Virus record (IMG/VR): IMGVR_UViG_3300001765_000297
Strand: one strand, 5' to 3'
DNA: 64,000 nucleotides
Source of the DNA: a virus
Lineage: Duplodnaviria; Heunggongvirae; Uroviricota; Caudoviricetes
Below, piece by piece: positions 6-16,474 of the stretch; position 1 is the first letter of the stretch; the number at the start of each line of letters is the position of its first letter. Under the pieces are notes generated by a model. It was not told the origin of the DNA. It made no database searches and was given only the letters and a program-made list of their open reading frames with translations. The translations under genes and the position numbers were made by a program.

Positions 6-61
6 ACTGAATAAGTGATTAAAATGTTACGTTTTGAGTAAAGAAAATAAAATTATTTTTG
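6..61. repeat. direct repeat copy A (~55 bp); partner at 496..551; together they flank gene 53..466
   Basis: by-eye alignment ACTGAATAA..GTTTTGAGTAAAGAAAATAAAATTATTTTTG vs AACTGAATAA..GTTTTTAGTAAAGAAAATGAAAATTATTTTTC. Confidence 0.45.
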
Positions 62-466
62 ATATTTCTTTGCATAGCCTATAAACAGTGACTCTGCGAG
101 GCTATCTGTTAGGTCACTCTGTAAATGGGTATGCATTAATTTGCATTTCAAATTGTGTTCTACTCCCCATATTGCATGGCATAGCTCATGTAAAACAATC
201 TGATACAAATATGATTTGCCTAGGCTTGTGTCGGGTATCCAAATATAATTGCCTTTCATTTGTGCGACACCAATAGCGGAAACATCCATATCCTTAGTAG
301 TTATGCGGATATCAATTCTAGGCATTTCAAAGCCATTTGCTCTGAGCAAATTCTTTGCCTTATAGATAAGGTCAATTACTTGTCTACGTTCAGCATAAAC
401 GCTATTATCCATTCTCTTATTAGTGTGTCCCTTTGGTGCTGATGTTCTAATTTTTGTTGCTCTCAT
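53..466 (-). CDS. zincin-like (SprT/DUF45-like) metallopeptidase-domain protein
   Basis: 137-aa ORF; LHELCHAIWGVEH = HExxH...H zinc-binding motif. Confidence 0.45.
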   Translation of the reverse strand: MRATKIRTSAPKGHTNKRMDNSVYAERRQVIDLIYKAKNLLRANGFEMPRIDIRITTKDMDVSAIGVAQMKGNYIWIPDTSLGKSYLYQIVLHELCHAIWGVEHNLKCKLMHTHLQSDLTDSLAESLFIGYAKKYQK

Positions 467-495
467 GTTCTTTGTTTTGGTTTATGTCTACTTTA

Positions 496-551
496 ACTGA
501 ATAATGCCTATCAGGGTTTCGTTTTTAGTAAAGAAAATGAAAATTATTTTT
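496..551. repeat. direct repeat copy B (partner of 6..61)
   Basis: see copy A. Confidence 0.45.
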
Positions 552-825
552 CTTCCGGCTGATTATCAGCTAGTTACAATGCACATTATTTTCCTATATA
601 TATGGTATGTTATTCCTTATATATAAGGTGTTAGAATTTCACCGGTATGTCCGGGAATGCCCATGAATAGTGTGTTTCCGGAGTAATGGCGCTGCAATGC
701 CCACAGAATCAGTATTTCCCAGGGTAGCAGCAGCTAAAGACCAGTGTATTTGGACATTGTAGAAGCAATGCTTCGGAAACCCTGATTCAGCCTGGCTTTC
801 CGGAGGATTGAAAATAAATTAAATT

Positions 826-870
826 ATTTTGATATTAAATGTAACCTTTATATCTTTGTACCGTTAAAGA
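826..870 (+). promoter_or_regulatory. composite promoter of sigma gene: host-type TTTG(828-831)-N19-TATCTTTG(851-858) overlapping phage-type GTAACC(841-846)..CGTTAAA(862-868)
   Basis: matches Bacteroidetes sigmaA consensus TTTG/TAnnTTTG; overlaps a variant of the phage motif. Confidence 0.5.
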
Positions 871-894
871 GTACATAAACCAAATTTATACATC

Positions 895-1548
895 ATGAAA
901 AAATATAATTTATCTCGAATAATGAAAACTGCATGGCAGATATACAGGGCAGTTGGTATGGACAATATTACATTTGGCGAAGCCTTAAAACAAAGTTGGG
1001 CAAAGTGTAAAGAGTTACCAAGTTTTGAGCAGATATACAAAGATAACTATAAAGCAGTATTAAACTATATTAGGTTCAAATCCTCTAATTTAGGCACAGA
1101 GAATGCAGAAGAATTGTGTAACGACATATTTTTAAGGTTCAAAGACAATATGTATAAATACGATGGCAGAGCCTCTGCAAGGACATTGCTATTCACTTAT
1201 GCTAACAATGGAATTATTGACCATTTCAGAGGGAAAAACGTAGGTAAGACTAGTTGTATGTCTGATTTTGCAGATGATAATGGCAAAGACTTTTTTCAGA
1301 TTGCCGATAGTAATTTTGCCAATGCACTAGTTGAAAATAACGAATTGTCGGAAAAGATTACTAAGAGTTTCAATGTACTGAAACCAAAGTACAAAGAGGT
1401 AGCTAGATTGTTCTTTGTAGAGGAATTGCAGTACACAGAGATTGCAGAAATTCTAGAGATACCTTTGGGAAGTGTTAAGGGTATGATATTCAGAGTTAGA
1501 GAAATGCTACAAGGCGAATTGAAACCAATGTATAATGCAATGTACTAA
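895..1548 (+). CDS. sigma-70 family (ECF-like, regions 2 and 4 only) RNA polymerase sigma factor
   Basis: region 2 (AEELCNDIFLRF...ARTLLFTYANNGIIDHFR) and region 4 HTH (EVARLFFVEELQYTEIAEILEIPLGSVKGMIFRVREML). Confidence 0.8.
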   Translation: MKKYNLSRIMKTAWQIYRAVGMDNITFGEALKQSWAKCKELPSFEQIYKDNYKAVLNYIRFKSSNLGTENAEELCNDIFLRFKDNMYKYDGRASARTLLFTYANNGIIDHFRGKNVGKTSCMSDFADDNGKDFFQIADSNFANALVENNELSEKITKSFNVLKPKYKEVARLFFVEELQYTEIAEILEIPLGSVKGMIFRVREMLQGELKPMYNAMY

Positions 1549-1621
1549 GATACATTGCATAAAACGAAACCCTAATGTACTATTAAGAGTATAAGAGTTA
1601 TAACCACTAAAATATATAAGC

Positions 1622-1750
1622 ATGAAAACATTAACAGTTACTCCGGAAACCTTTGGTACAATGTTACTAAGTATAATTGAGTCAGGTGTTACATTTGAAG
1701 CAATTGAGAAAGACGGTAAAATAATTGTTGAATTTACAGGTGGTTTTTGA
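1622..1750 (+). CDS. small hypothetical protein (42 aa)
   Basis: ORF behind degenerate promoter AAACCC..AGTATAAG (shares CCCTAATGTACTATT with the 3035 promoter). Confidence 0.2.
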   Translation: MKTLTVTPETFGTMLLSIIESGVTFEAIEKDGKIIVEFTGGF

Positions 1751-1776
1751 AACCTTTGTTCAATGTCCACGTATAA
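1748..1776 (+). promoter_or_regulatory. phage promoter TGAAAC-N16-CGTATAA
   Basis: motif instance; identical to B. subtilis sigmaW-type consensus TGAAAC-N16-CGTATA. Confidence 0.55.
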
Positions 1777-1804
1777 GAATTATAAACACTAAAAAACCAT
1801 AATC

Positions 1805-2074
1805 ATGACAACAAAAAACGCAGTTCGCCCATTGTTCACAATTGCAAACGAAATCAGAAAAGATTGGAGAGCCACAGCCAAAGATGGTAAGATTTACTTT
1901 GGTGCTGTTCCTTACCTTGATGCAATGTCAAGCCTTGACAAAATTACTGATGCCTATGGATTAGACTCAGGTAAAATGATTGTAGCATACTTTTTAGGTA
2001 ATGCAAGTCAGTGGAAAGGTGAGAAGGCAAGAGAGATTAAAAAAGAGTTAAATGCTATGTTAAAATCGAAATAG
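1805..2074 (+). CDS. hypothetical early protein
   Basis: ORF downstream of promoter. Confidence 0.5.
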   Translation: MTTKNAVRPLFTIANEIRKDWRATAKDGKIYFGAVPYLDAMSSLDKITDAYGLDSGKMIVAYFLGNASQWKGEKAREIKKELNAMLKSK

Positions 2075-2156
2075 CACAATGTTCATTGTGAGGGGCAAAT
2101 GTCCCTCACATATTTCCAGTAATAACCGGTATTTTAATAATCAAAACTATAAAGCA

Positions 2157-2450
2157 ATGGAATTAAAAATGAAAGTTGTAACGTATAATGAAATTGATTA
2201 CTATGATTTTAACAAATTTGTGCAAAGCATTTATGGTGGTAACTTCGAATTTGTTGCAAACGAAGAAGCTAATAATTACAGTCGATACAAATTCGATGCA
2301 CCTAATGTGCATATGGATTTTGATGGCGAAGAAGAAGCTGCAATAAGGTCGGGCAAATATCCAATGCAATGTACTCATGCATTGTTCAATGTATTGCACA
2401 AAGATGGTCATATTCAAGCCGGAGATTATATTATAAAGGTTTCTTGGTAA
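2157..2450 (+). CDS. hypothetical protein (start trimmed from 2079 to Met after hairpin 2088-2109)
   Basis: ORF; upstream in-frame extension crosses a GTGAGGG/CCCTCAC hairpin. Confidence 0.45.
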   Translation: MELKMKVVTYNEIDYYDFNKFVQSIYGGNFEFVANEEANNYSRYKFDAPNVHMDFDGEEEAAIRSGKYPMQCTHALFNVLHKDGHIQAGDYIIKVSW

Positions 2451-2480
2451 TGTAACCTTTCACTTTGTTTTTACGTATAA
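2451..2480 (+). promoter_or_regulatory. phage promoter TGTAAC(2451-2456)-N17-CGTATAA(2474-2480)
   Basis: motif; followed by conserved leader CATCATAACCAAAACATTCAGAC-ATG. Confidence 0.6.
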
Positions 2481-2504
2481 TCATCATAACCAAAACATTC
2501 AGAC

Positions 2505-2672
2505 ATGGCAACAATAACAACAAAAACGACAATCGAGTTAGACCAAAGAGAAATCACAAATATTTTGGTTTCTCACTTTCAAGATAAGGGTATATTAAAA
2601 GATAATGTTCATACTTCCAATATTCATATTCGTGAAGAGGGTGGACAAATCAAATGTACAATTAAAGAATAA
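2505..2672 (+). CDS. small hypothetical protein (55 aa)
   Basis: ATG at canonical 24-nt distance from -10; not in ORF track (<60 aa). Confidence 0.4.
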   Translation: MATITTKTTIELDQREITNILVSHFQDKGILKDNVHTSNIHIREEGGQIKCTIKE

Positions 2673-2689
2673 TATAAAACCTCTCAGAC

Positions 2690-2965
2690 ATGGACAAATT
2701 AAATTTCACCACAAAACTTTCAGGTTTAACCAAGCCAAGATTTAAACATGATTGTACTGAATGTACATATTTGGGCAGACACAATGGTAAAGACCTTTAT
2801 CATTGTACACAGGTTGGAAATCCTACAATTATAGTAAGGCATTCAAATCATCCCGCAGAATATGTTTCAGGTATGGTATTTGCTCGTAAAGCAGTTGAGG
2901 ATTGTGATTTTAACAATAGCTTTGCTCAGGCATACATGAGAGCCAAAGCATTAAATTTAATATAA
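2690..2965 (+). CDS. hypothetical protein
   Basis: ORF; likely co-transcribed with 2505..2672. Confidence 0.5.
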   Translation: MDKLNFTTKLSGLTKPRFKHDCTECTYLGRHNGKDLYHCTQVGNPTIIVRHSNHPAEYVSGMVFARKAVEDCDFNNSFAQAYMRAKALNLI

Positions 2966-2985
2966 AAATATAATTTTGGTTTATA

Positions 2986-3024
2986 GGGATGTTCCGTTTA
3001 ATCAGAACGGCATCCCTTTTTTTA
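2986..3024 (+). terminator. intrinsic terminator GGGATGTTCCG..CGGCATCCC + T7
   Basis: GC hairpin followed by TTTTTTT. Confidence 0.6.
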
Positions 3025-3034
3025 TTGCCGGAAA

Positions 3035-3064
3035 TGTAACCCTAATGTACTATTGTCCGTATAA
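3035..3064 (+). promoter_or_regulatory. phage promoter TGTAAC-N17-CGTATAA
   Basis: motif + conserved leader. Confidence 0.6.
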
Positions 3065-3087
3065 CCATCATAACCAAAACAAATATT

Positions 3088-3348
3088 ATGGCAACTCAAA
3101 AATCCATCGACAAAAAGTACAACTTCAAGACAGGTTTTAATGTTGGCTATGTAGAACTAGATAACATTATTACGGGCAAAACTCAACCATATTTGAAAGT
3201 AAGTAAACTCAGAGGCACATATCCTAACTATGAAAGAAATTCATTTAAGGGTATTATAATGGATAACTTTAAAACATTCAAGGCAATCAGTATTAATGCC
3301 AAAGGTGAATATGTTTACAAAGAATGTAAGAATCCCTATCAGAAATGA
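3088..3348 (+). CDS. hypothetical protein
   Basis: ORF with promoter/leader. Confidence 0.5.
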   Translation: MATQKSIDKKYNFKTGFNVGYVELDNIITGKTQPYLKVSKLRGTYPNYERNSFKGIIMDNFKTFKAISINAKGEYVYKECKNPYQK

Positions 3349-3375
3349 AACCCTACGGGGTTTCTTTCCGTATAA
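3347..3375 (+). promoter_or_regulatory. terminator hairpin GAAACCC-tacg-GGGTTTC whose 5' arm is the -35 (GAAACC) of promoter ..CGTATAA(3369-3375)
   Basis: hairpin + motif spacing 16. Confidence 0.5.
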
Positions 3376-3399
3376 TCGACATAACCAAAACATAAAGAC

Positions 3400-3828
3400 A
3401 TGAGCAAATTAATTATCGGATTAAAATTTTCACCCGCAACACTTTTATCTGCAACCGCAATTGGTGTTACAAAAGTATTAGTTACTTATGGTGGTGGAAT
3501 GGGTGGTTCACATAAAACTTACTATTGCACAGATTTTCAATTGAAAAAGTCTAATGGAATGTATGTTGCTAAACTCACCAATGGTGAAGTAATTGAAATC
3601 AATCCTCGTTATGTGGTTGAAATCAAAACAAGGACATTAGTTAAGGTCATTACTGATAAGACTGCTCACGCAAATTATCATAACCCTACTGTTAAGACTT
3701 CATTACTTGTTGAGTATATTGAATTGGAACACAATGAAACCTTTGAAGCCACCAATGAAAATCGTAACACTTCAAAATTTGATGACAAACGTATTGTTAT
3801 CAGCTATGAAGAGAACGTGCCAAAATAG
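3400..3828 (+). CDS. hypothetical protein
   Basis: ORF with promoter/leader. Confidence 0.55.
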   Translation: MSKLIIGLKFSPATLLSATAIGVTKVLVTYGGGMGGSHKTYYCTDFQLKKSNGMYVAKLTNGEVIEINPRYVVEIKTRTLVKVITDKTAHANYHNPTVKTSLLVEYIELEHNETFEATNENRNTSKFDDKRIVISYEENVPK

Positions 3829-3927
3829 AAACCTTTTCTGTATTTTCGATATGCCCTTGCGTTGTGATAACGCAGGGGTTTCTTCATTTAAAGCTGCAGC
3901 TTTTTCCAGGATTTCACCGGTGAAAAC

Positions 3928-3955
3928 GTAACTTTTTTCCGGCAATTACGTATAA
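3928..3955 (+). promoter_or_regulatory. phage promoter GTAAC-N16-CGTATAA driving ORF-free transcript
   Basis: motif; no ORF downstream until next promoter at 4060. Confidence 0.5.
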
Positions 3956-3961
3956 GAATTG

Positions 3962-4045
3962 TCAGGGTGAAACTTGGGTGAAGTAATCCAACCCTACCTT
4001 ATGTTCTAATCATAGAATGATTCTAAATACTATATGCAAGTAAAT
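3962..4045 (+). ncRNA. candidate small RNA, family copy 1 (motif GTAATCCAACCCTACC 3983-3998, hairpin TTCTA-atca-TAGAA)
   Basis: promoter-driven, non-coding; shares motif with copies at 9925 and 16976. Confidence 0.3.
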
Positions 4046-4059
4046 ATAATTAATGCAAA

Positions 4060-4089
4060 TGAAACCTTTTTATATCATTCTGCGTATAA
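4060..4089 (+). promoter_or_regulatory. phage promoter TGAAAC-N17-CGTATAA
   Basis: motif. Confidence 0.55.
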
Positions 4090-4105
4090 AAAATAAAAAG
4101 AAATT

Positions 4106-4375
4106 ATGGCTAACTGTGGTTATAGTGCTGATAAAAAATTAATTGCCGATGCAATTAAGTCAGGCAAAACATTAGATATTAAAGAGAAAGATAATAGTAT
4201 AATCATTCTCTTTAAGAATAAAATAAATGCACTTCTTTTGGAGGACACAGTTTCAAATCATGAGTATAATGGTCATAAATATGAGTTTCATTCAGCATGG
4301 AATAAATTATCAAGACTATTAATTAAACTGAATCAGATTAGACAAAAGAATATGTACTACAAATCAATTGAATAA
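4106..4375 (+). CDS. hypothetical protein
   Basis: ORF with promoter. Confidence 0.5.
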   Translation: MANCGYSADKKLIADAIKSGKTLDIKEKDNSIIILFKNKINALLLEDTVSNHEYNGHKYEFHSAWNKLSRLLIKLNQIRQKNMYYKSIE

Positions 4376-4430
4376 ACGTAACCTTTCATAGTCATTTTGC
4401 GTATAATCAGCATAACCAAAACATAAAGAC

Positions 4431-5036
4431 ATGGCACTTATTTTAGTTAGTTGTGAAGAAAGTCAGGCAGTAACAAAAGCATTCAGAGCATTAGGGCATG
4501 AAGCATATTCAAATGACCTTAAACCTTGTAGTGGTGGACATCCTGAATGGCATTTGCAAATGGATTGCTTTGAAGCAATTGCATTAAAGTCTTGGGATTT
4601 ACTTATTGCTTTCCCTACTTGTACTTATCTTACAGTTAGTGCAAACAAATGGTATAAAGACCAACCTAAGAGAAAAAGTGGTGCTTTGGTAGGTGCGGAG
4701 AGAAGACAAGCAAGACTTGACGCAATTGATTTCTTCATGGCATTCGTTAATGCTGATGTACCGAGGATTGCAATTGAAAACCCTATTGGAGTTATGTCGA
4801 CAGTATATCGCAAACCCAATCAGGTTATACAACCTTGGATGTTTGGACATGGCGAAACCAAAGCAACTTGCTTATGGCTTAAGAACTTACCTAACTTGAA
4901 ACCAACAGATGTTGTTGAAGGCAGAGTTGGTGCAATGCATTTACTTCCTAAAACTGACAACAGAGCAGAATTAAGGTCAAAGACTTATCAAGGTGTTGCA
5001 GATGCAATGGCAAAACAATGGTCAGAGTGCTTATAG
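4431..5036 (+). CDS. truncated C5-cytosine-methyltransferase-like protein (motif IV PTC and motif VI ENP present; SAM glycine loop degenerate)
   Basis: LILVSCEESQAVTKAFRALGHEAYSNDLKP aligns to C5-MTase motif I region but lacks FxGxGG; FPTCTYLTVSANK ~ PCQxFSxAGK; IENPIG ~ ENV. Confidence 0.4.
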   Translation: MALILVSCEESQAVTKAFRALGHEAYSNDLKPCSGGHPEWHLQMDCFEAIALKSWDLLIAFPTCTYLTVSANKWYKDQPKRKSGALVGAERRQARLDAIDFFMAFVNADVPRIAIENPIGVMSTVYRKPNQVIQPWMFGHGETKATCLWLKNLPNLKPTDVVEGRVGAMHLLPKTDNRAELRSKTYQGVADAMAKQWSECL

Positions 5037-5100
5037 CACTTTGACTTTTTGTAACAACCGAATGTCCATTTTCGTATAATCATAACCAAAACAAGATAAC

Positions 5101-5469
5101 ATGAAACTCAATAACAAAACAATTCTCGTAGTAAGTGACAATGGTGAAATGGATATTTTCTTACTTGATGGTGGTGTTGCCACTATTCACCACAATGGCG
5201 AGAGATTCTTAACAACTTACATTCAGAATCGTGCAACACCTGACGACCTGAGAAATCCTGATTTTTGGACTTCTGATGTCATGAGTGATAGCAAACAGTA
5301 TATTAAAGACTGGAAACCTACACAGAAGTACATTAGTTCAAAAATGATTTTGGATGCAGCTCGTTGGCTTCTCGCAGGTTTTGGAAATGGTACTATCTTA
5401 TTCCTAAATAATTACAATGAAGTTGCTGACCTCATGGAGGAAGCTGGAATTTGGAATACTGCTGAGTAA
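5101..5469 (+). CDS. hypothetical protein
   Basis: ORF with promoter/leader. Confidence 0.5.
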   Translation: MKLNNKTILVVSDNGEMDIFLLDGGVATIHHNGERFLTTYIQNRATPDDLRNPDFWTSDVMSDSKQYIKDWKPTQKYISSKMILDAARWLLAGFGNGTILFLNNYNEVADLMEEAGIWNTAE

Positions 5470-5524
5470 TGTAACAAATTATTGTCCAATTACGTATAAT
5501 CAATGTACACTAAAACATAAAGAC

Positions 5525-5860
5525 ATGACAAAAAAAGAATGTGCAGAATTAAGCGAAAAGGCAACAGAGATTTCCGAAGGTGTTCAAAGAGCAATCAAAG
5601 AAGTCACCAAGGACAAACCACTAGTATTCTTTGGTGATGAACCTGAACAGGAAGACCTTGATGAAGCACCTTTTGGATACGCAGTTAGCCGACATGGAAA
5701 TTTCCTTGATGGCAATGTACAGAGGGTTTGCGGTGATGATGTCACACTCTTTTTAAGAGGCGATGATTGGGGCGACACAGTTGAACAAAACTTATCTGAC
5801 CTACCTTTCGAGGCACTGATTATGATTCTTGACAAACTTGAAGAAATATTGGAGGACTAA
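5525..5860 (+). CDS. hypothetical acidic protein (start moved to ATG at leader distance from promoter 5471-5499)
   Basis: -10 CGTATAA 5493-5499, 25-nt leader, ATG 5525. Confidence 0.5.
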   Translation: MTKKECAELSEKATEISEGVQRAIKEVTKDKPLVFFGDEPEQEDLDEAPFGYAVSRHGNFLDGNVQRVCGDDVTLFLRGDDWGDTVEQNLSDLPFEALIMILDKLEEILED

Positions 5861-5863
5861 ATT

Positions 5864-6208
5864 ATGGAACTCACATTAGTAAAAACCCGCACATTTAAAC
5901 TTGAACCCTATGGTAAGTTTAGAATTTCAATGGCGAGAAAAGCAAAAGGTTATCTACCAAATATTATTCCTCTACATGAATTGGATATTGACCACGATAC
6001 TTCGATGCCGTTCACAGAGCAACAGGAGAAAGATATTATAAAGTTAATGAAAGCCAATAAAACAGATATTCTAACTGATGGCTCATACTTTGGATTCTAC
6101 ACAAGAGCAGGAGGAGGCGAATTTGCAAGTCTGTGCCATATAAGACACCCAAAGCTAATAAAATATAGGGAAGATGAAAGTTTTAAGGAACTAGTAGACG
6201 GAGAATAA
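5864..6208 (+). CDS. hypothetical protein
   Basis: ORF translationally coupled to upstream gene. Confidence 0.5.
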   Translation: MELTLVKTRTFKLEPYGKFRISMARKAKGYLPNIIPLHELDIDHDTSMPFTEQQEKDIIKLMKANKTDILTDGSYFGFYTRAGGGEFASLCHIRHPKLIKYREDESFKELVDGE

Positions 6209-6260
6209 ACCGGTGAAATCCGGCACAAAAAATTGATTGTCCATGTTTTGGTTATATTAA

Positions 6261-6297
6261 GGGTGTAGTTGTTAACCAGACAACCACCCTTTTTTTA
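6261..6297 (+). terminator. intrinsic terminator GGGTGTAGTTG..CAACCACCC + T7
   Basis: hairpin + T-tract. Confidence 0.6.
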
Positions 6298-6365
6298 TTT
6301 AAGTAAAACGTAACCTTTTAATTGTTAATGTCGTATAACCATCATAACCACTAATAAATAGCACT

Positions 6366-7259
6366 ATGGACACAACAATCAAAAGTACTTACCCAATGGT
6401 AAGTTCACCCGAAGAAGTAAATGATAACGGTAAATTTTCAACACTTAATTTTGGTATGTTTACTACCCTAAAATATAATAGGGGTGAAGACAGTGGAATT
6501 GATAATAACCGTTTATCTAGGTTTAAGAAACTTTGGAATGATAATGAATATTTTAAAGATGATTTACATCTTTATGTTAATAGAGCATTAGAAACTATTG
6601 ACGGTCATCATCATTTACATCTTCATATATTTCTCAAAAGCATTGGTATCGACCTACCAATTAATTTTACAGTATTGACACAGGCAGAATATAATGAAGG
6701 TACATTACTTCAGAAAATTGGTGCGATTGCAAGGCGAAATGCAGTAACTTCAAAATGGGATAGTAAGGCTCATTTCAACGTAGCATTAAAATTACGTTTA
6801 CCTTTGGCAATTGCAATTCAGAATCTTAAAGCAGAGTATATGAGAAAGTATAGTACTGATGGTAGAATGATAACTCCATCACGTATTTTTGCCATTCTTA
6901 CATCGGATAGTAAATGGTTAAATAGTGATTTAGTAACTGTTGAAGATTATGGTAAGGAGGAATTAATACCGGTAATGTCTACCGAAAAATTTAAAAAAGA
7001 GTTTGAATTTGTTTGTAAGGTTATTAACTATCTTACCGAATGGAATTGTGTTTATGAAGAAACTGCAAAAATCACCCAATTTAATATGATACGTGCAACA
7101 ATGCCTATGATTTGGGATAATATGTTAAATATGGATAAATTTCTTGCAGAGATTGAATCAAAAGAATTGAAAGAGAGATTTAAGGGTGTGGCAAATACTG
7201 TCAAGGGTTGTGTAATGTACACTAAAAGATTTCAGAAGAAAATGTTAAACGAATATTAA
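6366..7259 (+). CDS. hypothetical protein (297 aa)
   Basis: ORF with promoter (6311-6345) and leader. Confidence 0.6.
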   Translation: MDTTIKSTYPMVSSPEEVNDNGKFSTLNFGMFTTLKYNRGEDSGIDNNRLSRFKKLWNDNEYFKDDLHLYVNRALETIDGHHHLHLHIFLKSIGIDLPINFTVLTQAEYNEGTLLQKIGAIARRNAVTSKWDSKAHFNVALKLRLPLAIAIQNLKAEYMRKYSTDGRMITPSRIFAILTSDSKWLNSDLVTVEDYGKEELIPVMSTEKFKKEFEFVCKVINYLTEWNCVYEETAKITQFNMIRATMPMIWDNMLNMDKFLAEIESKELKERFKGVANTVKGCVMYTKRFQKKMLNEY

Positions 7260-7272
7260 TAAATATAATAAT

Positions 7273-7313
7273 GGGGTTGCAATTTGTAACCCCATTTATT
7301 TTAACTCGTATAA
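7273..7313 (+). promoter_or_regulatory. terminator GGGGTT..AACCCC with -35 TGTAAC (7285-7290) in the hairpin, -10 CGTATAA 7307-7313
   Basis: hairpin/T-rich + motif. Confidence 0.55.
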
Positions 7314-7318
7314 TATCT

Positions 7319-7777
7319 ATGAATATATTTGAACTACAAACAGAAACCGTACTTAACAACCACGGGAATGTCCAATTAATTTATATTGGTGAAAGTGTTG
7401 TTGCAACCAAAATCTTAAAAGAATCAACAAATAAAAACAAGTTATTTAAAAATGCTTGTTCGCCATATTTAACACCAACTGGAAGACAAAAAAAAACTGA
7501 GTTTGTTTATCATTCACCATCAAATAATATAGATATAAGAATTGAATGTAAGTCTAGAAAAACCCTGGGTTTAATTGGTGAGATAACAGACGAATTAAAT
7601 TTTATTACTAACATACCTGAGAAACAATATTGTTTGGTTTTAAGCGAAATATTACTCAGTAATTATATTTTAGATAGAATAAATACCATTGTAGTAGAAA
7701 AGGAATTGCAAGATAAGATTTGGGTTGGTAGTTTAGAACAGTTTAAAAGTTTCTTAAAGGAACATATTAAATTGTAA
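7319..7777 (+). CDS. hypothetical protein; apparently leaderless (ATG 5 nt after -10)
   Basis: first ATG after promoter; ORF-track start 7271 lies inside terminator. Confidence 0.5.
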   Translation: MNIFELQTETVLNNHGNVQLIYIGESVVATKILKESTNKNKLFKNACSPYLTPTGRQKKTEFVYHSPSNNIDIRIECKSRKTLGLIGEITDELNFITNIPEKQYCLVLSEILLSNYILDRINTIVVEKELQDKIWVGSLEQFKSFLKEHIKL

Positions 7778-7802
7778 CCTTATCAATGTACATAACGTAT
7801 AA
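7773..7802 (+). promoter_or_regulatory. phage promoter TGTAAC-N17-CGTATAA
   Basis: motif. Confidence 0.6.
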
Positions 7803-7807
7803 TACTC

Positions 7808-8002
7808 ATGATACTTTTAACAACCATAACAACTAAGATTCAGAAAGTCATTAAACCCGAAGATGATATAAGGTTTCTTGATGTACGCTACTTGGATAAG
7901 TGGATAAGAAATTATCCACAGTGTTTTCCAAAGTTCGTATTGAATAATGAGCATAAGATATTGTTCAACCCTAATAAACTAAGATATGAATTTCACAAAT
8001 GA
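7808..8002 (+). CDS. hypothetical protein; leaderless-type start
   Basis: ATG 5 nt after -10. Confidence 0.4.
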   Translation: MILLTTITTKIQKVIKPEDDIRFLDVRYLDKWIRNYPQCFPKFVLNNEHKILFNPNKLRYEFHK

Positions 8003-8420
8003 ATTAGATTTTCTTGGCAGCTTTTGGAAAGAAGCACAGAGAATCACAGGTAACATATCAACAGAATTGCCAAAGATTAATCCGAAGGCAAAAATGATTG
8101 GTAAGCACCTTGCAGTTGTTCAATATAAAGACCTTGAAAATTGGAGTGTTGAGGGCTTGTTCGGCAAGTCTGAAAATCTTGATGCACTTGCAAGAAAGAT
8201 TTCATTTATGGTAAATAAAGGTGATGCACAGAATGTCAAACCTCTTATTGAAAGAATATTAACTAAGGGTGTTAAGGCACAAACAAAACCAAAATTAGTA
8301 CGCACTGGCTATACTTGTGATGCAGAATTCTATGGCTTTGGTCATTTCCGTTGGGATTACAAAGCATACATATTAAAGGCAGATGAATTGAAAAGAGTAA
8401 GAGAGTATTTTAATATGTAA
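7986..8420 (+). CDS. hypothetical protein
   Basis: ORF overlapping upstream gene end. Confidence 0.5.
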   Translation: MNFTNELDFLGSFWKEAQRITGNISTELPKINPKAKMIGKHLAVVQYKDLENWSVEGLFGKSENLDALARKISFMVNKGDAQNVKPLIERILTKGVKAQTKPKLVRTGYTCDAEFYGFGHFRWDYKAYILKADELKRVREYFNM

Positions 8421-8469
8421 CATTTCAATGTTGATTTGCGTATAAGCTGCATAACCAATACATAGAGAC

Positions 8470-8814
8470 ATGAGCGAAATTAAATTTGTTAAGTTAACCG
8501 AAGAAGAATTTGAAAGCCGTTTTAATATGGTAATGAATCACTTCTATGCAGACCCTTGTGATTGCCCGTTTGGTGGTGGAATGTTTGAAACCTATGGACA
8601 GGAAGTTGAGTACATCAACAACATCATGAAAGGTACTGATGAAAACCTGAAACGCAGAATTTGGACTATTTTGGATTCCGATGGAGTAATGTGTTTTGTA
8701 AGTGGCTATCACTTTGTAAATCGTTTTGGCTATCTTATTACCGAGGAAGAAGTTGAAGAAGGAACTGAATACACCTTAGAACTCATGGGAACTGAGGATG
8801 AAGAAGAAGAATAA
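8470..8814 (+). CDS. hypothetical protein with acidic C-terminal tail
   Basis: ORF with promoter 8419-8450 and leader. Confidence 0.55.
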   Translation: MSEIKFVKLTEEEFESRFNMVMNHFYADPCDCPFGGGMFETYGQEVEYINNIMKGTDENLKRRIWTILDSDGVMCFVSGYHFVNRFGYLITEEEVEEGTEYTLELMGTEDEEEE

Positions 8815-8832
8815 ACAAATCTACTAAAATTA

Positions 8833-8876
8833 AAACCCTCTTGGTGTAACCCTAGAGGGTTTTTTTACGTATAACC
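8833..8876 (+). repeat. 44-bp terminator/promoter cassette, exact duplicate of 9448..9491
   Basis: AAACCCTCTTGGTGTAACCCTAGAGGGTTTTTTTACGTATAACC identical at both loci; hairpin AAACCCTCT/AGAGGGTTT with GTAACC in loop. Confidence 0.8.
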
Positions 8877-8898
8877 TGCATAACCAATACATAAAGAC

Positions 8899-9114
8899 AT
8901 GGAAAAGAAATACTTTTTATTCGGAAGTGAAATTTGTGATGCAATGGAAGAAGATGGCATTGAAGCTGCGCTTAAAGTTGCTGAGGAAGGTGGTTTTGCA
9001 ACCTACTATTGGGATGAACACAGTACTCCAAGTGAACTACTTGCAGAGTACGATGGTTGGAACTCCTATATGGAAATCACCGAGGCAGACTACATCAGAT
9101 TTCAAAACTTATAA
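8899..9114 (+). CDS. hypothetical protein
   Basis: ORF with promoter/leader. Confidence 0.5.
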   Translation: MEKKYFLFGSEICDAMEEDGIEAALKVAEEGGFATYYWDEHSTPSELLAEYDGWNSYMEITEADYIRFQNL

Positions 9115-9201
9115 TCACCGGTAATTTAATTAAAAACCCTGGAAAACGTAACCTTTTCCGGGGTTTTTGCGTATAACCATCATAACCAATACATACACAA
9201 A

Positions 9202-9435
9202 ATGGGAATACTAAGAATTAGTGCTAAATGTTCTGACTTATGTTGGACTGAGTACACAGATGCTAAAGGTAATAAAACCGAGAGTGATGGCTATGTGCCA
9301 GAAGGAATTGGAATATCTTCTGATGGTGATTGTGGTGACTATGTTAGCCTTGATATCGACATGCAGACTGGTCAAATTCAGAATTGGAAACCTGTTAGCG
9401 ATGCTCGTGTAATCAAAGCACAGAAATCTGCATAA
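9202..9435 (+). CDS. hypothetical protein
   Basis: ORF with promoter (9151-9180) whose -35 sits in hairpin CCCTGGAAAA..TTTTCCGGGG. Confidence 0.5.
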   Translation: MGILRISAKCSDLCWTEYTDAKGNKTESDGYVPEGIGISSDGDCGDYVSLDIDMQTGQIQNWKPVSDARVIKAQKSA

Positions 9436-9447
9436 CTTTTAAAATAT

Positions 9448-9491
9448 AAACCCTCTTGGTGTAACCCTAGAGGGTTTTTTTACGTATAACC
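9448..9491 (+). repeat. 44-bp terminator/promoter cassette, exact duplicate of 8833..8876
   Basis: see 8833. Confidence 0.8.
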
Positions 9492-9513
9492 ACTATAACT
9501 AATACATAAAGAC

Positions 9514-9726
9514 ATGAATTACAAAGTAGTATTTGAAATCGAAGTGGAAGCCGAATCACCACTTGATGCAGCAAAAGAAGTTCAAGAAATGTTGAACGAG
9601 CATAATAACTGGCAGTATTACATTCAATCCTCTGAGGGGTCAGAAGATGTGTTTAGTGTTGACCTACAAGAGGAAGACGAAGATGCGGTACTTAAAGTGG
9701 ATAAATATATTCCAATGATTAAATAA
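9514..9726 (+). CDS. hypothetical acidic protein
   Basis: ORF with promoter/leader. Confidence 0.5.
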   Translation: MNYKVVFEIEVEAESPLDAAKEVQEMLNEHNNWQYYIQSSEGSEDVFSVDLQEEDEDAVLKVDKYIPMIK

Positions 9727-9866
9727 TGGCAGTAAATCTCCACTGTCCTAATTGCGGAGAAAGTCTCGGCAAGGACAAAGAAAATCCAAAGGTAGCTAGT
9801 TGTGGTAATTGTGGTGAAAACGACATCAGAAACCCAAATGGTTATGATGATGAAGAAGATAATTAA
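9726..9866 (+). CDS. small zinc-ribbon protein (46 aa; CPNCG..CGNCG)
   Basis: TAATG overlap with upstream gene; two CxxC pairs. Confidence 0.35.
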   Translation: MAVNLHCPNCGESLGKDKENPKVASCGNCGENDIRNPNGYDDEEDN

Positions 9867-9889
9867 ACCGGAAATTCTCCGGTTTTTTT
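9867..9889 (+). terminator. intrinsic terminator ACCGGA..TCCGGT + T7
   Basis: hairpin + T-tract. Confidence 0.6.
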
Positions 9890-9918
9890 GTAACATATTT
9901 CCAGGCTTTTGCGTATAA
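9889..9918 (+). promoter_or_regulatory. phage promoter TGTAAC-N17-CGTATAA driving ORF-free transcript
   Basis: motif. Confidence 0.55.
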
Positions 9919-9924
9919 ATCATA

Positions 9925-10008
9925 TCACCGGTTGGCAATCAAAAATTGCCGAGAGAGTAGACTCCACCCTACCTTATATTCTGATATGGGTAGTAATACT
10001 ATCCACTT
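9925..10008 (+). ncRNA. candidate small RNA, family copy 2 (hairpin TTGGCAAT..ATTGCC, motif GTAGACTCCACCCTACC 9957-9973)
   Basis: promoter-driven, no ORF. Confidence 0.3.
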
Positions 10009-10037
10009 TGTAACCTTTTTAATGTAGTTACGTATAA
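10009..10037 (+). promoter_or_regulatory. phage promoter TGTAAC-N16-CGTATAA
   Basis: motif. Confidence 0.55.
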
Positions 10038-10042
10038 TACCT

Positions 10043-10183
10043 ATGAAAGAATTTAAAACCATACATTCAGGTGTTAATAAATCAGACGCAAATAAACTCG
10101 TTGGATGGTGGAATGCAAATACACCTAATTATTACTTCAAAAAGAAAGTAGGAAAACTCTATAATATAATAAAACAACTATAA
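10043..10183 (+). CDS. small hypothetical protein (46 aa), leaderless-type
   Basis: ATG 5 nt after -10; stop abuts next ATG. Confidence 0.3.
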   Translation: MKEFKTIHSGVNKSDANKLVGWWNANTPNYYFKKKVGKLYNIIKQL

Positions 10184-10184
10184 T

Positions 10185-10376
10185 ATGGAAACCAAAGCAA
10201 GTATGGTAGTTATGTCACACCTTAGTGATGCACAGGAATGCATAGGAATATGTATGTCTCAGGAAAACGCACATAAGAATATTAACTTCGCAAAGTTCGT
10301 TATATTGGAAACCGATGGCGACCTTAACATGATGATTGATGCTGATTCTCTGTGGGAAAAGTTTAATAAAAGATAG
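10185..10376 (+). CDS. hypothetical protein
   Basis: ORF. Confidence 0.45.
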   Translation: METKASMVVMSHLSDAQECIGICMSQENAHKNINFAKFVILETDGDLNMMIDADSLWEKFNKR

Positions 10377-10435
10377 TAAAAACGTAACCTTTCCTAACTA
10401 CTTATCGTATAACCACTATAACCAATACATATAAT

Positions 10436-11245
10436 ATGAAAGACATTAAATTTTCGACAATTGCAAAGGCTTGTAAAACAGTTGGTGTATCTTACCTTGG
10501 TGGTGTTAGTCTTAGTGCCAAAATGGTAAAGAATGAAAAAGTAGGTGTAATGACTTATAGCATTAATCTCAGTCCTGCCGAGACGAGCGGATATGATGTT
10601 TGCAGTCACAGTACTGCTGAATGTAGGTCGGGTTGTTTGGCTACAAGTGGTCACGCCAAAATGGATATCCAAAGTGGTAAGACTATTATTAGCGATGCAA
10701 GGATTAAAAAGACAAGGTTGTTTTTTGAGAACCAAGAATTTTTCATGGAATGGCTTATTGCTGAATTACTGAAATATCGTAAACAAGCCATTAAGAAAGG
10801 TATGGTTTTTTCTGCAAGGCTTAACACGATTTCAGATATCGATTGGGCAAACGTAAGAACTTTGGGAGGTTCAAATATCTTCGAATTGTTTTCTACAGTA
10901 CAGTTTTATGATTACACCAAAAACCCAAACAAGTTTGTTGGGAAACCTGAAAACTATCACCTGACTTTCAGTTTCACAGGTCGCAATTGGATTGCTTGTA
11001 ACACCTTATTGAAACGTGGAGAGAATATTGCTATGGTATTCAATGTTAACAAGGTTGAAGATTTACCAAAGACCTACAAAGGTTTTAAGGTTATCAATGG
11101 AGACGAAACCGATTACAGACCTAATGACGAGAAAGGTGTTATTGTAGGGTTGAAATGGAAACGTATTGCAGATAAGGTTGCCGAGGCACAAGTAAGACAG
11201 TCAATGTTCGTGGTGCAACCACTTGATGTTAACTGTGGATATTAA
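10436..11245 (+). CDS. hypothetical protein (269 aa, Cys/His cluster CSHSTAECRSGC)
   Basis: ORF with promoter 10382-10415 and leader. Confidence 0.6.
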   Translation: MKDIKFSTIAKACKTVGVSYLGGVSLSAKMVKNEKVGVMTYSINLSPAETSGYDVCSHSTAECRSGCLATSGHAKMDIQSGKTIISDARIKKTRLFFENQEFFMEWLIAELLKYRKQAIKKGMVFSARLNTISDIDWANVRTLGGSNIFELFSTVQFYDYTKNPNKFVGKPENYHLTFSFTGRNWIACNTLLKRGENIAMVFNVNKVEDLPKTYKGFKVINGDETDYRPNDEKGVIVGLKWKRIADKVAEAQVRQSMFVVQPLDVNCGY

Positions 11246-11266
11246 AAACTAATGTACATAAAAAGA

Positions 11267-11305
11267 CCTTGCAAGTGTAACCCTGCAAGGTCTTTCTTCG
11301 TATAA
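11267..11305 (+). promoter_or_regulatory. terminator CCTTGCA..TGCAAGG with -35 TGTAAC (11276-11281) in loop; -10 CGTATAA 11299-11305
   Basis: hairpin + motif spacing 17. Confidence 0.55.
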
Positions 11306-11329
11306 TGTCCATAACCAAACTCATATAAC

Positions 11330-11542
11330 ATGGTAAAATTTTATTACACAGTAGAAAAAGAAGTTGAAGATGAAAATCTCACTGGAAACAAAACAATAAC
11401 TGTTTATAGTATTGTTGATAATGAACCTGTAAAGCTAACAGATATTGAGTCTGTAATTGAAGACAACTCCAAAGAGAAGATTGTTGATTATTTTGATGAA
11501 AATGGTTTTGGCGATGCAGAATATGAATTAATATTACTGTAA
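11330..11542 (+). CDS. hypothetical acidic protein
   Basis: ORF. Confidence 0.5.
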   Translation: MVKFYYTVEKEVEDENLTGNKTITVYSIVDNEPVKLTDIESVIEDNSKEKIVDYFDENGFGDAEYELILL

Positions 11543-11591
11543 CCTTTTGATGTTATTCTTCGTATAATCAGCATAACTTAAAACAGACAAA

Positions 11592-12107
11592 ATGAAAATC
11601 GAATTAAAACGTATCAGTTTCAACGAACGAATGTCCGAAGAAACAAATTGCTTTTCTGCTGACCTCTATATTGATGGTAAGAAAGTTGGTAGTTGTAAGA
11701 ATGATGGTCGTGGCGGTTGTACTAATTATGGTGGGAACTCAACGGCTGACTATGATATTATCAAAGAAGCCGAAGCATATTGCAAGACATTGCCCAAAGT
11801 GAAATCAAGTTTTGACAATTTCGAATTTGAGCAAAGTCTTGAAAGTGTTATTGATGAATTGCTTGAAGAATATCTGAAAGCCAAAGAAAAAAGTAAAGTA
11901 CAAAAACTTATGGAGAAAGCAATTCTTTGGGGTGTTCCTGATAGTGGTAGATATACTATGATAAAATATAATATACCATTATCACACGTGGCTAATGTTC
12001 GACTTAAGAAATTACAGGAAACCGTTGATGCAATTAAAATAAAACATTGTGCAGGAAATGTACAAATCTTGAACACCAACCTTGAGGCTCTTGGAATAGT
12101 ATTATAA
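11592..12107 (+). CDS. hypothetical protein
   Basis: ORF with promoter 11541-11575. Confidence 0.55.
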   Translation: MKIELKRISFNERMSEETNCFSADLYIDGKKVGSCKNDGRGGCTNYGGNSTADYDIIKEAEAYCKTLPKVKSSFDNFEFEQSLESVIDELLEEYLKAKEKSKVQKLMEKAILWGVPDSGRYTMIKYNIPLSHVANVRLKKLQETVDAIKIKHCAGNVQILNTNLEALGIVL

Positions 12108-12125
12108 ACCCAACTATCAATTAAA

Positions 12126-12167
12126 ATCCTCTCAGAATGTAACTATCTGAGGGGATTTTTCGTATAA
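12126..12167 (+). promoter_or_regulatory. terminator ATCCTCTCAGA..TCTGAGGGGAT + T5 with -35 TGTAAC (12138-12143) in loop; -10 CGTATAA 12161-12167
   Basis: hairpin + motif. Confidence 0.55.
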
Positions 12168-12191
12168 CTAATGTACACTAAAACATATGAT

Positions 12192-12380
12192 ATGAAAGCA
12201 AAAAGATTTTTCGAGATTTACATTAAGTTTCTCAGTGGAGAAGGAATTGATTTTAAAGCCGATGGAATAAAGAAAGGTGAAATCTTGGAATTGATTAGCT
12301 TTGCTCAGGCACATCTGAGTACTTCGGCTTCCAATTCATTTGTATATTCTCTTGTTGCAGAAGTATTAGAAAAACCGTAA
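12192..12380 (+). CDS. hypothetical protein (start moved to ATG 24 nt after -10)
   Basis: ORF-track ATG 12171 lies 3 nt after -10; 12192 matches standard leader length. Confidence 0.45.
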   Translation: MKAKRFFEIYIKFLSGEGIDFKADGIKKGEILELISFAQAHLSTSASNSFVYSLVAEVLEKP

Positions 12381-12430
12381 CAATTAATGTCCGGCATTCG
12401 TATAATGTACATAACTAATACATAAATATT

Positions 12431-12634
12431 ATGGAAGACTTAACGTATGACAATGATATCCGAGGCGATTATGCCTTATTCATTGATGCAAAACATTTTC
12501 TTGACGAATGGGAACTAGATGATGAAACCAAAAAACTGGTAGGTTCTAAACTCACATTCTTCCGGGTTATCCAAGATGGTGAACAAGGTAATCACGGTTG
12601 GATTGAGAATGGTGAAATAATTCAATGGGGATAA
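12431..12634 (+). CDS. hypothetical protein
   Basis: ORF with promoter 12378-12410. Confidence 0.5.
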   Translation: MEDLTYDNDIRGDYALFIDAKHFLDEWELDDETKKLVGSKLTFFRVIQDGEQGNHGWIENGEIIQWG

Positions 12635-12656
12635 TACTAACATAATAATTATATCA

Positions 12657-12860
12657 ATGTTAAAACCAGTAAGAAAAAACGTAAGTGCTGAAACATTAAA
12701 GTATAATATCTTTATATGTCAAAAGGAAATTGATGATGCTCGGCAAATTGTTAAGGATGCCTATAAGGAAATCCGTAAAACTATAAAAGAGACTGAAAAA
12801 ATAATTACCAAACAACGCCATTATAAAGAATTGTTAAAGCAATGTAACAATCACCGGTGA
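12657..12860 (+). CDS. hypothetical basic protein
   Basis: ORF, no own promoter seen. Confidence 0.4.
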   Translation: MLKPVRKNVSAETLKYNIFICQKEIDDARQIVKDAYKEIRKTIKETEKIITKQRHYKELLKQCNNHR

Positions 12861-12899
12861 TTTTGCGTATAATAAGTATTAACCACAAATACATATATT

Positions 12900-13592
12900 A
12901 TGAAAACTAGAGAAGAATTAATCGATGCAGTTATTGCTGAACTTAAAGCAGACATCCTTTCAGGTGACGTAACAGTACTGGAAGAAATCCTAGGTTTTGT
13001 TGAGAAAGACAAACTCGTTGAGTCATTACCAGAAGAACGCTGGTCAGAATTCCGGACCTCTTCAGATTACTTCAGCATCAAAGCAACTGGTTTCAATGAA
13101 GTTATTCAGAGGGAAGAAATTCAAATCCATTGTGGAGAGAATGGAAACCTGATGATTTATAAAACCCCGGAAGGATTTGTTGTTGATGCTTATGATGCTA
13201 ATGGCGAGAACATAGACACTATGGCAATCTGGGAAGACGGTATCAATCCACTTGTTGAGGGTGAAGATTGTATAAAGGATGATGAAGGCAACTGTGCTTT
13301 CTGTGGTCAGAAATGTTGGGAAGGCGAAATGTGTGACGAACAACAGGGTGATGGTTTCCAAGAACCCACTTGTTTCAGTCCTGCTGAACTCCGGGAATTT
13401 ATTGAAGAATGGGGGCAAACTCATCATGAAATCTGTGCCGAACTCGAATATTGGGAAAACGGTAATGACACACAAGACCTACTAATGGTCGACTACTTCT
13501 GGCTTGAACCTATGAATGTATGGCTGCCAAAGCTATCATCAATGTACACAGAAAGACAGGAAGCAATTGCGAAATTCCTGAGATTAGGATAA
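12900..13592 (+). CDS. hypothetical acidic protein (230 aa)
   Basis: ORF with promoter 12844-12880. Confidence 0.6.
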   Translation: MKTREELIDAVIAELKADILSGDVTVLEEILGFVEKDKLVESLPEERWSEFRTSSDYFSIKATGFNEVIQREEIQIHCGENGNLMIYKTPEGFVVDAYDANGENIDTMAIWEDGINPLVEGEDCIKDDEGNCAFCGQKCWEGEMCDEQQGDGFQEPTCFSPAELREFIEEWGQTHHEICAELEYWENGNDTQDLLMVDYFWLEPMNVWLPKLSSMYTERQEAIAKFLRLG

Positions 13593-13680
13593 TCAATGTC
13601 CGATATTAAATCCCTCTGTAACATTACAGGGGGATTTTTCGTATAAGCAATGTACATAATAATAACCAATATATAAAGAT

Positions 13681-13962: not shown

Positions 13963-14009
13963 CATTTACAGGGGAATTTTCGTACAACACTCATAAAAAA
14001 ATAAATATT

Positions 14010-14300: not shown

Positions 14301-14358
14301 CCTTTGTTGCAGTTCTTCGTATAATTGTTATAATTAATATTCACTAATACATATCACG

Positions 14359-14649: not shown

Positions 14650-14705
14650 TTCCGTAACCCTTTTTATCTATTCATCATATAACCATCATAACTAATACAT
14701 ATAAC

Positions 14706-15461: not shown

Positions 15462-15502
15462 TAATATTGGATAGCAATGTCCGATTGGAGGGGAGCACTT
15501 AA

Positions 15503-15906: not shown

Positions 15907-15928
15907 ATTAAAAATACTTTGTTTATTT

Positions 15929-15958: not shown

Positions 15959-15965
15959 CATTCAT

Positions 15966-16470: not shown

Positions 16471-16474
16471 AGTT

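Follow-up and report, generated by a model that had tools for sequence, protein, structure and literature searches.

Interlocked host-type and ECF-type promoter elements upstream of the sigma factor gene of an uncultured phage

Phage sigma cascades are exemplified by SPO1 gp28 and T4 gp55, and among bacterial genes E. coli rpoH and rpoE have multi-promoter regions in which several holoenzymes feed a single sigma gene. Genes for sigma factors of the extracytoplasmic function (ECF) type are commonly, even if not universally, accompanied by an adjacent gene for a cognate anti-sigma factor. Apart from the crAss-like phages, which have polymerases of their own, there has to our knowledge been hardly any work on how Bacteroidota phages control transcription. 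Here we analyzed IMGVR_UViG_3300001765_000297, a 64,000-nucleotide (nt) stretch of DNA from a virus of the Caudoviricetes (hereafter the window), in which a host-type and an ECF-type promoter are interlocked upstream of the gene for an ECF-type sigma factor. The phage family concerned is known from metagenomes only, and its whole transcription programme appears to hang on this one sigma factor and a very regular promoter code. Compared with the E. coli rpoH and rpoE regions, the promoters described here share the same ~40 bp, in a geometry that is conserved in the family (with 28 nt, N28, between GTAAC and the host-type box in 14 lineages).

Among phage cascades, phiEco32 starts with host-dependent early transcription and then relies on its own sigma factor gp36, which redirects the host core polymerase to uniform phage promoters and whose gene depends on the host holoenzyme for its initial transcription (PMC12276001). 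The window would follow the same logic, but differs from known phage cascades in that its sigma factor is a bona fide member of the ECF family (TIGR02937), the host-type promoter is of the Bacteroidota -33/-7 type, the sigma gene has an interlocked second promoter with a dedicated -10 class, and nearly all transcription units in 64 kb share one promoter type. ECF sigmas are typically autoregulated, and at the fourth base of the -10 element the promoter used for this can deviate from the regulon consensus; the B. subtilis sigW promoter reads TGAAAC-N16-CGTA, and sigX has CGAC (PMC5758882). The phage locus resembles these B. subtilis autoregulatory promoters in its AAC-containing -35 element, its 16–17 nt spacer, its CGT -10 element, its T tract and its position directly upstream of the sigma gene. 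Unlike in B. subtilis, no anti-sigma partner was found among the open reading frames (ORFs) beside the phage gene, and the own-gene promoter departs from the regulon at invariant positions and is interlocked with a housekeeping promoter, its reading by the phage sigma being only proposed. The concept of a phage sigma cascade combined with an ECF-style own-gene promoter is known; what is new is how the promoters interlock, the existence of a dedicated CGTTAAA class and the occurrence in uncultured phages of presumed Bacteroidota hosts.

Two promoter elements in front of the sigma gene

The sigma gene (ATG at 895) needs a promoter of its own, because the nearest upstream genes lie on the other strand, and a 428-nt region separates it from the divergent gene. 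Both promoter elements are located 27–67 nt upstream of the sigma gene (Table 1). The first, which could be read directly from the window, consists of TTTG, a 19-nt spacer and TATCTTTG. This is a perfect match to the Bacteroidota sigma-A promoter (TTTG/TAnnTTTG), with the same N19 spacing and a typical predicted leader (PMC6847099, PMC9723704). Work on F. johnsoniae refined the -7 consensus to TAHHTTTG and reported a mean leader of 33 nt and a weakly conserved -33 element (PMC6847099). Indeed, TATCTTTG also fits the refined consensus, with no G at either n position, and placing the start 4–5 nt downstream of the -7 box predicts initiation at 863–864 and a leader of ~31–32 nt. Unlike ordinary Bacteroidota sigma-A promoters, this site sits within the spacer of another promoter, and its start is only predicted.

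Across the window, the strict host motif TTTG-N17-21-TAnnTTTG occurred 10 times compared to 3.95 expected, a count reached by 1 out of 100 shuffles; the initial annotation had proposed a search of this kind and rightly anticipated few matches. Of the 10, 6 fell between genes at a suitable position upstream of a gene or of the non-coding region. In sense orientation and no more than 150 nt ahead of a gene, TTG-N18-21-TAnnTTTG was found 9 times (1.4 expected). These counts support the host-type promoter before the sigma gene as genuine. Together with the conservation described below, they make a host-type start of sigma expression well supported, with host sigma-A most likely performing it.

The second element comprises GTAAC (841–845; GTAACC, 841–846), a spacer of 16 nt and CGTTAAA. 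As TGTAAC-N16-CGT (840–864) it has the AAC-core -35, the 16–17 nt spacing and the CGT -10 that define ECF-type promoters. All coordinates that the initial annotation had given for both elements were exact. Within the window, GTAAC-N14-19-CGT was found 44 times against 3.9 expected (count reached by 0 of 100 shuffles), and besides the sigma copy ~43 promoters follow the consensus tGTAAC(C/A)-N16/17-CGTATAA. These CGTATAA-type promoters precede nearly every other transcription unit; including the sigma copy, the sites extend from 841 to 19584 on the plus strand and from 57826 to 25365 on the minus strand, in orientations that agree with the gene blocks. Relaxed searches added variants with GAAAC and AGT at 30(-), 520(-), 1566, 1749, 3347 and 4061. 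Overall, the phage-type site is a textbook ECF-type promoter, close to that of B. subtilis sigW including the T tract after the -35 element, a feature that stimulates ECF promoters in that species when it lies near the -35 (PMC5758882).

The sigma copy retains the consensus -35, the T tract, N16, CGT, the leader box and the usual distances to the leader and the ATG. With 15.4 bits, its -35 half takes rank 9 among 43 sites, the other 42 averaging 13.0 bits. It lacks the extended -10 of the window, reading CGTTAAA without ATAA, and is the sole GTAAC...CGT site in the window with CGTT. Of the four bases that follow CGT at the 42 other GTAAC-N16/17-CGT sites, the first is A in 42 cases, the second T in 41, the third A in 40 and the fourth A in 41. 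In random sequence of upstream-like composition, the strict host motif would arise at 0.0024 and GTAAC-N16/17-CGT at 0.001 per 100 nt; since each is so rare, their interlocking before the sigma gene is not due to chance.

We also observed two flavours of phage-type promoters. Those on the plus strand (841–19584) mostly have GTAACC and are followed by a CATAACCAAAACA leader box, and those on the minus strand (57826–25365) mostly have ttttGTAACA (10/12), without the CATAACCAAAACA box; the flavours may be temporal sub-classes of one sigma. Many phage-type promoters lie inside a terminator-like hairpin of the preceding gene, with GTAAC in or beside the loop and the T tail serving as the spacer, which results in very compact terminator-promoter units such as aaCCCTCTtggtGTAACcctAGAGGGtttttttaCGTATAA. 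Such hairpins were seen at 8834–8876, 9136–9178, 9449–9491, 11265–11307, 12127–12169 and 13606–13648, as well as in two related loci (L006 and L017; see below).

The sigma ORF encodes 217 amino acids (aa) and matches Pfam Sigma70_r2 and r4_2, with no r3; against the NCBIfam model of the ECF superfamily, TIGR02937, it scored 76.6 bits (cut-off 42.9) over residues 44–208. Residues 1–43 (895–1023) form an extension ahead of region 2 (MKxKYNxSxVMKxAWxI...FGxALKQSW), which is kept in most relatives and which typical ECF sigmas do not have. None of the neighbouring ORFs (42 aa and 89 aa downstream, 137 aa divergent) matched an anti-sigma factor, even though one of a novel type is possible. Across ~74 kb of the genome, a family hidden Markov model applied to the window, to locus L001 and to 10 kb past the start of the window detected no second sigma paralog.

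Conservation in related phages and the probable host phylum

The window matches the 91-kb metagenome contig JGI 3300002026 MIS_10000060, which encodes an identical sigma protein. Among deposited phages we found no close DNA relative, the sole match being 40 bp to methyltransferase genes of Flavobacterium phages, and the sigma protein had only distant matches there (24–34% identity), including 'sigma-W factor' genes of crAss-like phages. Alignment-based scans of metagenomes identified ~30 loci (designated by L numbers) with sigma homologs of 32–50% identity, and the promoter comparison was based on 28 distinct sigma-upstream regions of these related phages. Some of the homologs reside on contigs of 363 kb (L011), 299 kb (L012) and 168 kb (L013), and the sigma factor with its promoter system therefore extends to very large phages. 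The other genes of the relatives' loci use the same G(T/A)AAC-N16/17-CGTATAA code.

An ECF-type element was present in 20 of the 28 sigma-upstream regions. At these 20 sites the -10 element began with CGTT in 13 cases and with CGTA in 7 (CGTG, 0), compared with 12 CGTT, 190 CGTA and 1 CGTG among the 203 sites elsewhere in the same loci (Fisher P = 7e-10 for CGTT). The exact heptamer CGTTAAA accounted for 10 of the 13 sites, namely the window and 9 other distinct lineages. Real-looking CGTT promoters beyond the sigma-upstream regions stayed within the same control region: in L017, L018 and L029 they lie on the opposite strand, ~241–246 nt from the sigma ATG, and in L023 further copies are found just upstream of the sigma gene on the same strand. 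Three lineages (L024, L028 and L033) carry the canonical CGTATAA before the sigma gene. The initial annotation had described CGTTAAA as a one-off variant of the phage -10, which is wrong; the comparison shows a conserved class of promoters that belongs to the sigma control region, given the 13/20 versus 12/203 bias and its recurrence in the divergent promoter at 520(-).

The host-type box was similarly widespread. TAnnTTTG occurred in 21 of the 28 regions (0.15 expected per 140-nt region), nearly all copies fitting TAHHTTTG, which strengthens the initial annotation's claim of a host-type promoter. In most of these 21 regions the box is 37–51 nt from the ATG, with a typical distance of ~45 nt. 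In 14 lineages we found an exact composite, G(T/A)AAC-N16/17-(-10)-N4/5-TAnnTTTG, with N28 from GTAAC to the box and spacers that were otherwise unalignable; in 13 of the 14 the T of the box lies 37–51 nt before the ATG, in agreement with a box at -12 to -5 and a leader of ~33 nt, and the window has this T at 44 nt. A looser pattern, G(T/A)AAC-N27-29-TAnnTTTG, was found in 15 of the 28 regions and at 4 places elsewhere in 392 kb of searched strand.

The window departs from this tandem layout, in that its box is nested in the ECF spacer (GTAAC-N5-box-N3-CGT). The distances around the box are nevertheless those of the relatives: the -7 box and the AACCAAA leader are 19 nt apart in the window and 18 nt in L006, and the box and GAAAATAA are 41 nt apart in the window and 42–43 nt in L011, L014, L016, L020 and L031, while L017, L018 and L036 have 53 nt, equal to one extra helical turn. 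Because the window retains these distances, we consider the box to be the conserved anchor and the ECF element to have moved ~23 nt downstream. A nested layout is seen independently in L026 (GAAAC-att-TATCTTTG-cgcca-CGTAAAA), and L008, L009 and L015 have a fused layout, TATTTTTGTAAC, upstream of the sigma gene. Given these three geometries (nested, fused and tandem), overlap of the sigma-A box with an ECF promoter before the sigma gene is a family trait. That the box might be a mere effect of T-rich spacers was rejected, as its distance to the ATG is constant across lineages and the ECF element moves.

In some lineages the regulon differs along with the sigma: promoters read CGTATTA throughout L013 and L035, and CGTATAC is used in L023. 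In this last locus (3377–7941), CGTTAAA precedes the sigma gene and the two genes before it, CGTATAC the following genes, and CGTATAA or CGTAATA is found elsewhere. These patterns suggest a temporal code written in the -10 element and co-variation of sigma and promoter, and the co-variation supports the phage sigma as the reader of the regulon promoters.

Several features of the window point to a host from Bacteroidota. Shine-Dalgarno motifs precede just 1–3 of 140 genes and the leaders contain 49% A, a pattern described for this phylum (PMC6847099). A Dda-like helicase has its best matches in crAss-like phages, and full host-type motifs are enriched ahead of genes (9 versus 1.4 expected). Among species-representative genomes, the sigma has a single close relative, encoded by a 2.8-kb contig that was binned into a Lutibacter metagenome-assembled genome (MAG). 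A host from Chlorobi or elsewhere in the Fibrobacteres-Chlorobi-Bacteroidetes (FCB) group is less likely, given that the -7 consensus of green sulfur bacteria (Chlorobi, the sister phylum) is without TTTG (10.1101/172254). The Bacteroidota host that had been claimed at first sight is thus probable on indirect evidence, and the TAnnTTTG box combined with the lack of Shine-Dalgarno motifs offers a signal of host phylum that can be taken from sequence.

Possible readers of the CGTTAAA element

Given this arrangement, we propose that the 428-nt region between the sigma gene and the divergent gene is the transcriptional control region of the phage. The best overall explanation, to which we assign a probability of about 0.5, combines a host sigma-A start, a phage-sigma regulon and an autoregulatory hand-over. 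At infection, the sigma-A RNA polymerase of the Bacteroidota host would read TTTG-N19-TATCTTTG, and the first sigma mRNA would start at ~863–864 with a leader of ~32 nt. The phage ECF sigma would then redirect the host core polymerase to ~45 G(T/A)AAC-N16/17-CGTATAA promoters. GTAAC-N16-CGTTAAA would provide a second input to the sigma gene, starting at ~872–875, and would most likely be read, less efficiently, by the phage sigma itself, leading to positive autoregulation and a hand-over from host to phage. Since both promoters occupy one stretch of DNA, their holoenzymes would have to exclude each other. The interlocked promoter is probably the switch which starts the phage transcription programme, given that its design recurs in related phages. 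For the second element, the leading reading is autoregulation by the phage sigma, which is plausible but unproven. The model makes the concrete prediction of two start sites ~10 nt apart in a short, conserved and experimentally tractable switch, and the system could supply natural orthogonal sigma/promoter parts for Bacteroidota.

A number of points weigh against this explanation. The -10 half of the sigma copy scores -4.2 bits compared to 14.3 ± 3.0 for the other 42 sites (minimum 6.8), 11 bits below the weakest of them, and the A that it lacks is invariant at those 42 GTAAC-N16/17-CGT sites. In B. subtilis, a promoter's choice among ECF sigmas is determined by the fourth -10 base (PMC5758882). 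A conserved alternative heptamer, as opposed to scattered weak variants, suggests a different reader. Start sites are all predicted, the timing and the assignment of holoenzymes to elements are likewise inferred from the DNA, as is the host, and the -33 element is weakly conserved in the relatives. The search for a second sigma covered ~74 kb, which is less than the whole genome. Finally, three CGTTAAA promoters serve the sigma cluster of L023, which lacks a sigma-A box on that strand, and an Ignavibacteriales MAG contains an ECF/anti-sigma operon preceded, 15 nt before the ATG, by TGTAAC-N17-CGTTAAA. This operon (L114, 2929–4072) encodes an ECF sigma and a zinc-finger, transmembrane anti-sigma. 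Ahead of related cellular ECF genes from MAGs of Bacteroidota and Ignavibacteriota stands GTAAC-N17-CGTC(T)(A/T)T, and the cellular group represented by L114 is the likely source of the phage sigma.

The cellular operon makes a host ECF sigma a serious alternative reader. CGTTAAA would then be recognized by that host factor, the sigma gene and the divergent gene would be driven by host factors only, and the phage sigma would read CGTATAA alone; the control region would mimic a host ECF promoter, its inputs being sigma-A and possibly a stress-activated ECF sigma. The selectivity conferred by the fourth -10 base and the L023 cluster fit this possibility, as do the conservation of exact CGTTAAA in 10 lineages even though the regulon has CGTA at 190 of 203 sites, the CGTC promoters of related cellular ECF genes, and the CGT -10 box of flavobacterial ECF promoters (PMC9723704). 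However, anti-sigmas normally hold host ECF sigmas inactive, which would make such a factor a risky sole input, and the canonical CGTATAA stands before the sigma gene in L024, L028 and L033. Moreover, the single cellular CGTTAAA example comes from Ignavibacteriales, which is not a demonstrated host, and the phage regulon has exactly this -35, spacing and leader. We regard a host ECF reader as possible, though rather unlikely. An extension of it, which we put forward tentatively and with slightly less confidence, is that these phages, some with genomes above 300 kb, run a multi-tier promoter code on a single -35 element, in which a host ECF sigma would read the tier of CGTTAAA promoters that is limited to the sigma control region. 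If true, the master switch would be disguised as a host stress promoter interlocked with a housekeeping promoter, and sigma production would be doubly host-driven and possibly coupled to the envelope stress caused by infection. The region also lends itself to testing how promoters are divided among ECF sigmas by the fourth -10 base.

It is also conceivable, although improbable, that the ECF-like element is a site of negative feedback, where the phage sigma holoenzyme would bind, initiate poorly and block the sigma-A promoter, capping sigma levels. Its strong -35 half next to a very poor -10 half would suit such a role, as would the physical overlap of the promoters in nested, fused and tandem layouts, and ECF holoenzymes of B. 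subtilis have been suggested to occlude one another's promoters (PMC5758882). Yet the promoters at 520(-) and in L017, L018 and L029 share the -10 class without overlapping a sigma-A box and look productive, and the conserved exact heptamer at a normal leader distance suggests initiation as opposed to mere binding. That one of the elements has no function at all, the host match being a by-product of a T-rich spacer or the ECF element a decayed duplicate, is very improbable: TTTG is common in ECF spacers, the -33 is poorly conserved in relatives and there are signs of duplication (an inverted repeat at 476–504/856–884 and an orphan GAAACCCTGAT at 776–786), but both elements are conserved across lineages with otherwise unalignable spacers, their joint chance expectation is very low, the box stays equally far from the ATG where the ECF element has shifted, and without the host-type promoter there is no evident way to the first sigma.

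The divergent promoter and other promoters of the window

Table 1. Features of the sigma control region and further host-type or dual promoters in the window.
Feature	Position	Strand	Basis or remark
Divergent 137-aa gene, weak SprT-like match and HExxH motif	53–466	-	
Divergent promoter GAAAC-N17-AGTTAAA, with the -10 variant and leader of the sigma promoter	492–520	-	Sequence comparison
GAAAATAA, A-rich upstream (UP-like) motif, putative function	810–817	+	Distance to -7 box
Host-type -33 element TTTG	828–831	+	Exactly 19 nt upstream of -7 box
ECF-type -35 TGTAACC, followed by T tract CTTT	840–846	+	-35 score
Host-type sigma-A -7 box TATCTTTG, nested in ECF-type spacer	851–858	+	Predicted start 863–864
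ECF-type -10, CGTTAAA class, 16 nt past GTAAC	862–868	+	Predicted start ~872–875
Leader box ACATAAACCAAA	873–884	+	Common to plus-strand phage-type promoters; similar boxes follow relatives' promoters
ECF-type sigma gene, 217 aa, with ~43-aa N-terminal extension	895–1548	+	Pfam, TIGR02937
Nested dual promoter TTTG-N19-TAGCTTTG inside GTAAC-N17-CGTATAA, in the register of the sigma site	15918–15958	+	Before ~540 nt of non-coding DNA
Dual promoter TTTG-N20-TATATTTG fused to the -35 of GTAAC-N16-CGTATAA	17159–17217	+	Upstream of rIIA
Host-type only promoter	49752–49781	-	Before 311-aa gene
Host-type only promoter	52713–52743	-	Before 67-aa gene
Host-type only promoter	54604–54633	-	Before gene for 54-aa hydrophobic peptide

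The divergent promoter at 520(-) reads GAAAC-N17-AGTTAAAG and is followed by the ACATAAACCAAA leader. Its -10 and leader (476–504) form an inverted repeat with those of the sigma promoter (856–884), with 79% complementarity, and the orphan GAAACCCTGAT at 776–786 on the plus strand is identical to its -35 and the beginning of its spacer. The orphan and the inverted repeat suggest that the divergent promoters arose by inverted duplication, in which case the segment with the host-type promoter would be flanked by the old -35 and -10. Directly upstream, in the minus sense, of the promoters at 30(-) and 520(-) there is a 35-nt direct repeat (26–60 and 516–550, 83% identical) with the sequence aaaaataatttt(c)attttctttact(c/a)aaaac-G(T/A)AAC, possibly an UP element or a site for an activator. 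AT-rich palindromes lie upstream of the sigma promoter, CCTATATATATGG and CCTTATATATAAGG, at 593–605 and 615–628, which also occur in L012, L014, L016, L028 and L029. In the relatives the palindromes are followed by a conserved TTTAGAAT(G/T)A(A/T)TATAAATT, and in the window ~170 nt of GC-richer sequence lie between the palindrome element and the promoter. This element could be an operator or an origin-like part of the control region.

Dual promoters are not unique to the sigma gene (Table 1). The box of the nested site at 15918, TAGCTTTG, has a G at the first n position, which is disfavoured in F. johnsoniae (PMC6847099), and the fused layout before rIIA is that seen upstream of the sigma gene in L008, L009 and L015. 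Homologs of rIIA and rIIB occupy 17252–20810, and the dual host and phage promoter of rIIA recalls the early expression of rII in T4. The three genes behind host-only promoters, each a perfect match to the motif, are candidates for expression independent of the phage sigma; their products (311, 67 and 54 aa) matched no Pfam family.

Searching the whole window, we found no tRNA and, at gathering thresholds, no Rfam family, and a generic scan of 1–2200 for sigma-70 promoters and terminators performed no better than on shuffled sequence. Following the dual promoter at 15918, ~540 nt (15960–16507) are without a convincing ORF, have a GC content above that of their surroundings and end in a strong terminator hairpin (16475–16507). 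A sensitive Rfam search of 15900–17260 returned only a sub-threshold match to GcvB, mostly over the terminator, and the fold of 15965–16507 is not unusually stable (z = -1.0). Further short non-coding stretches led by promoters are present at 16941–17076 and 17077–17190.

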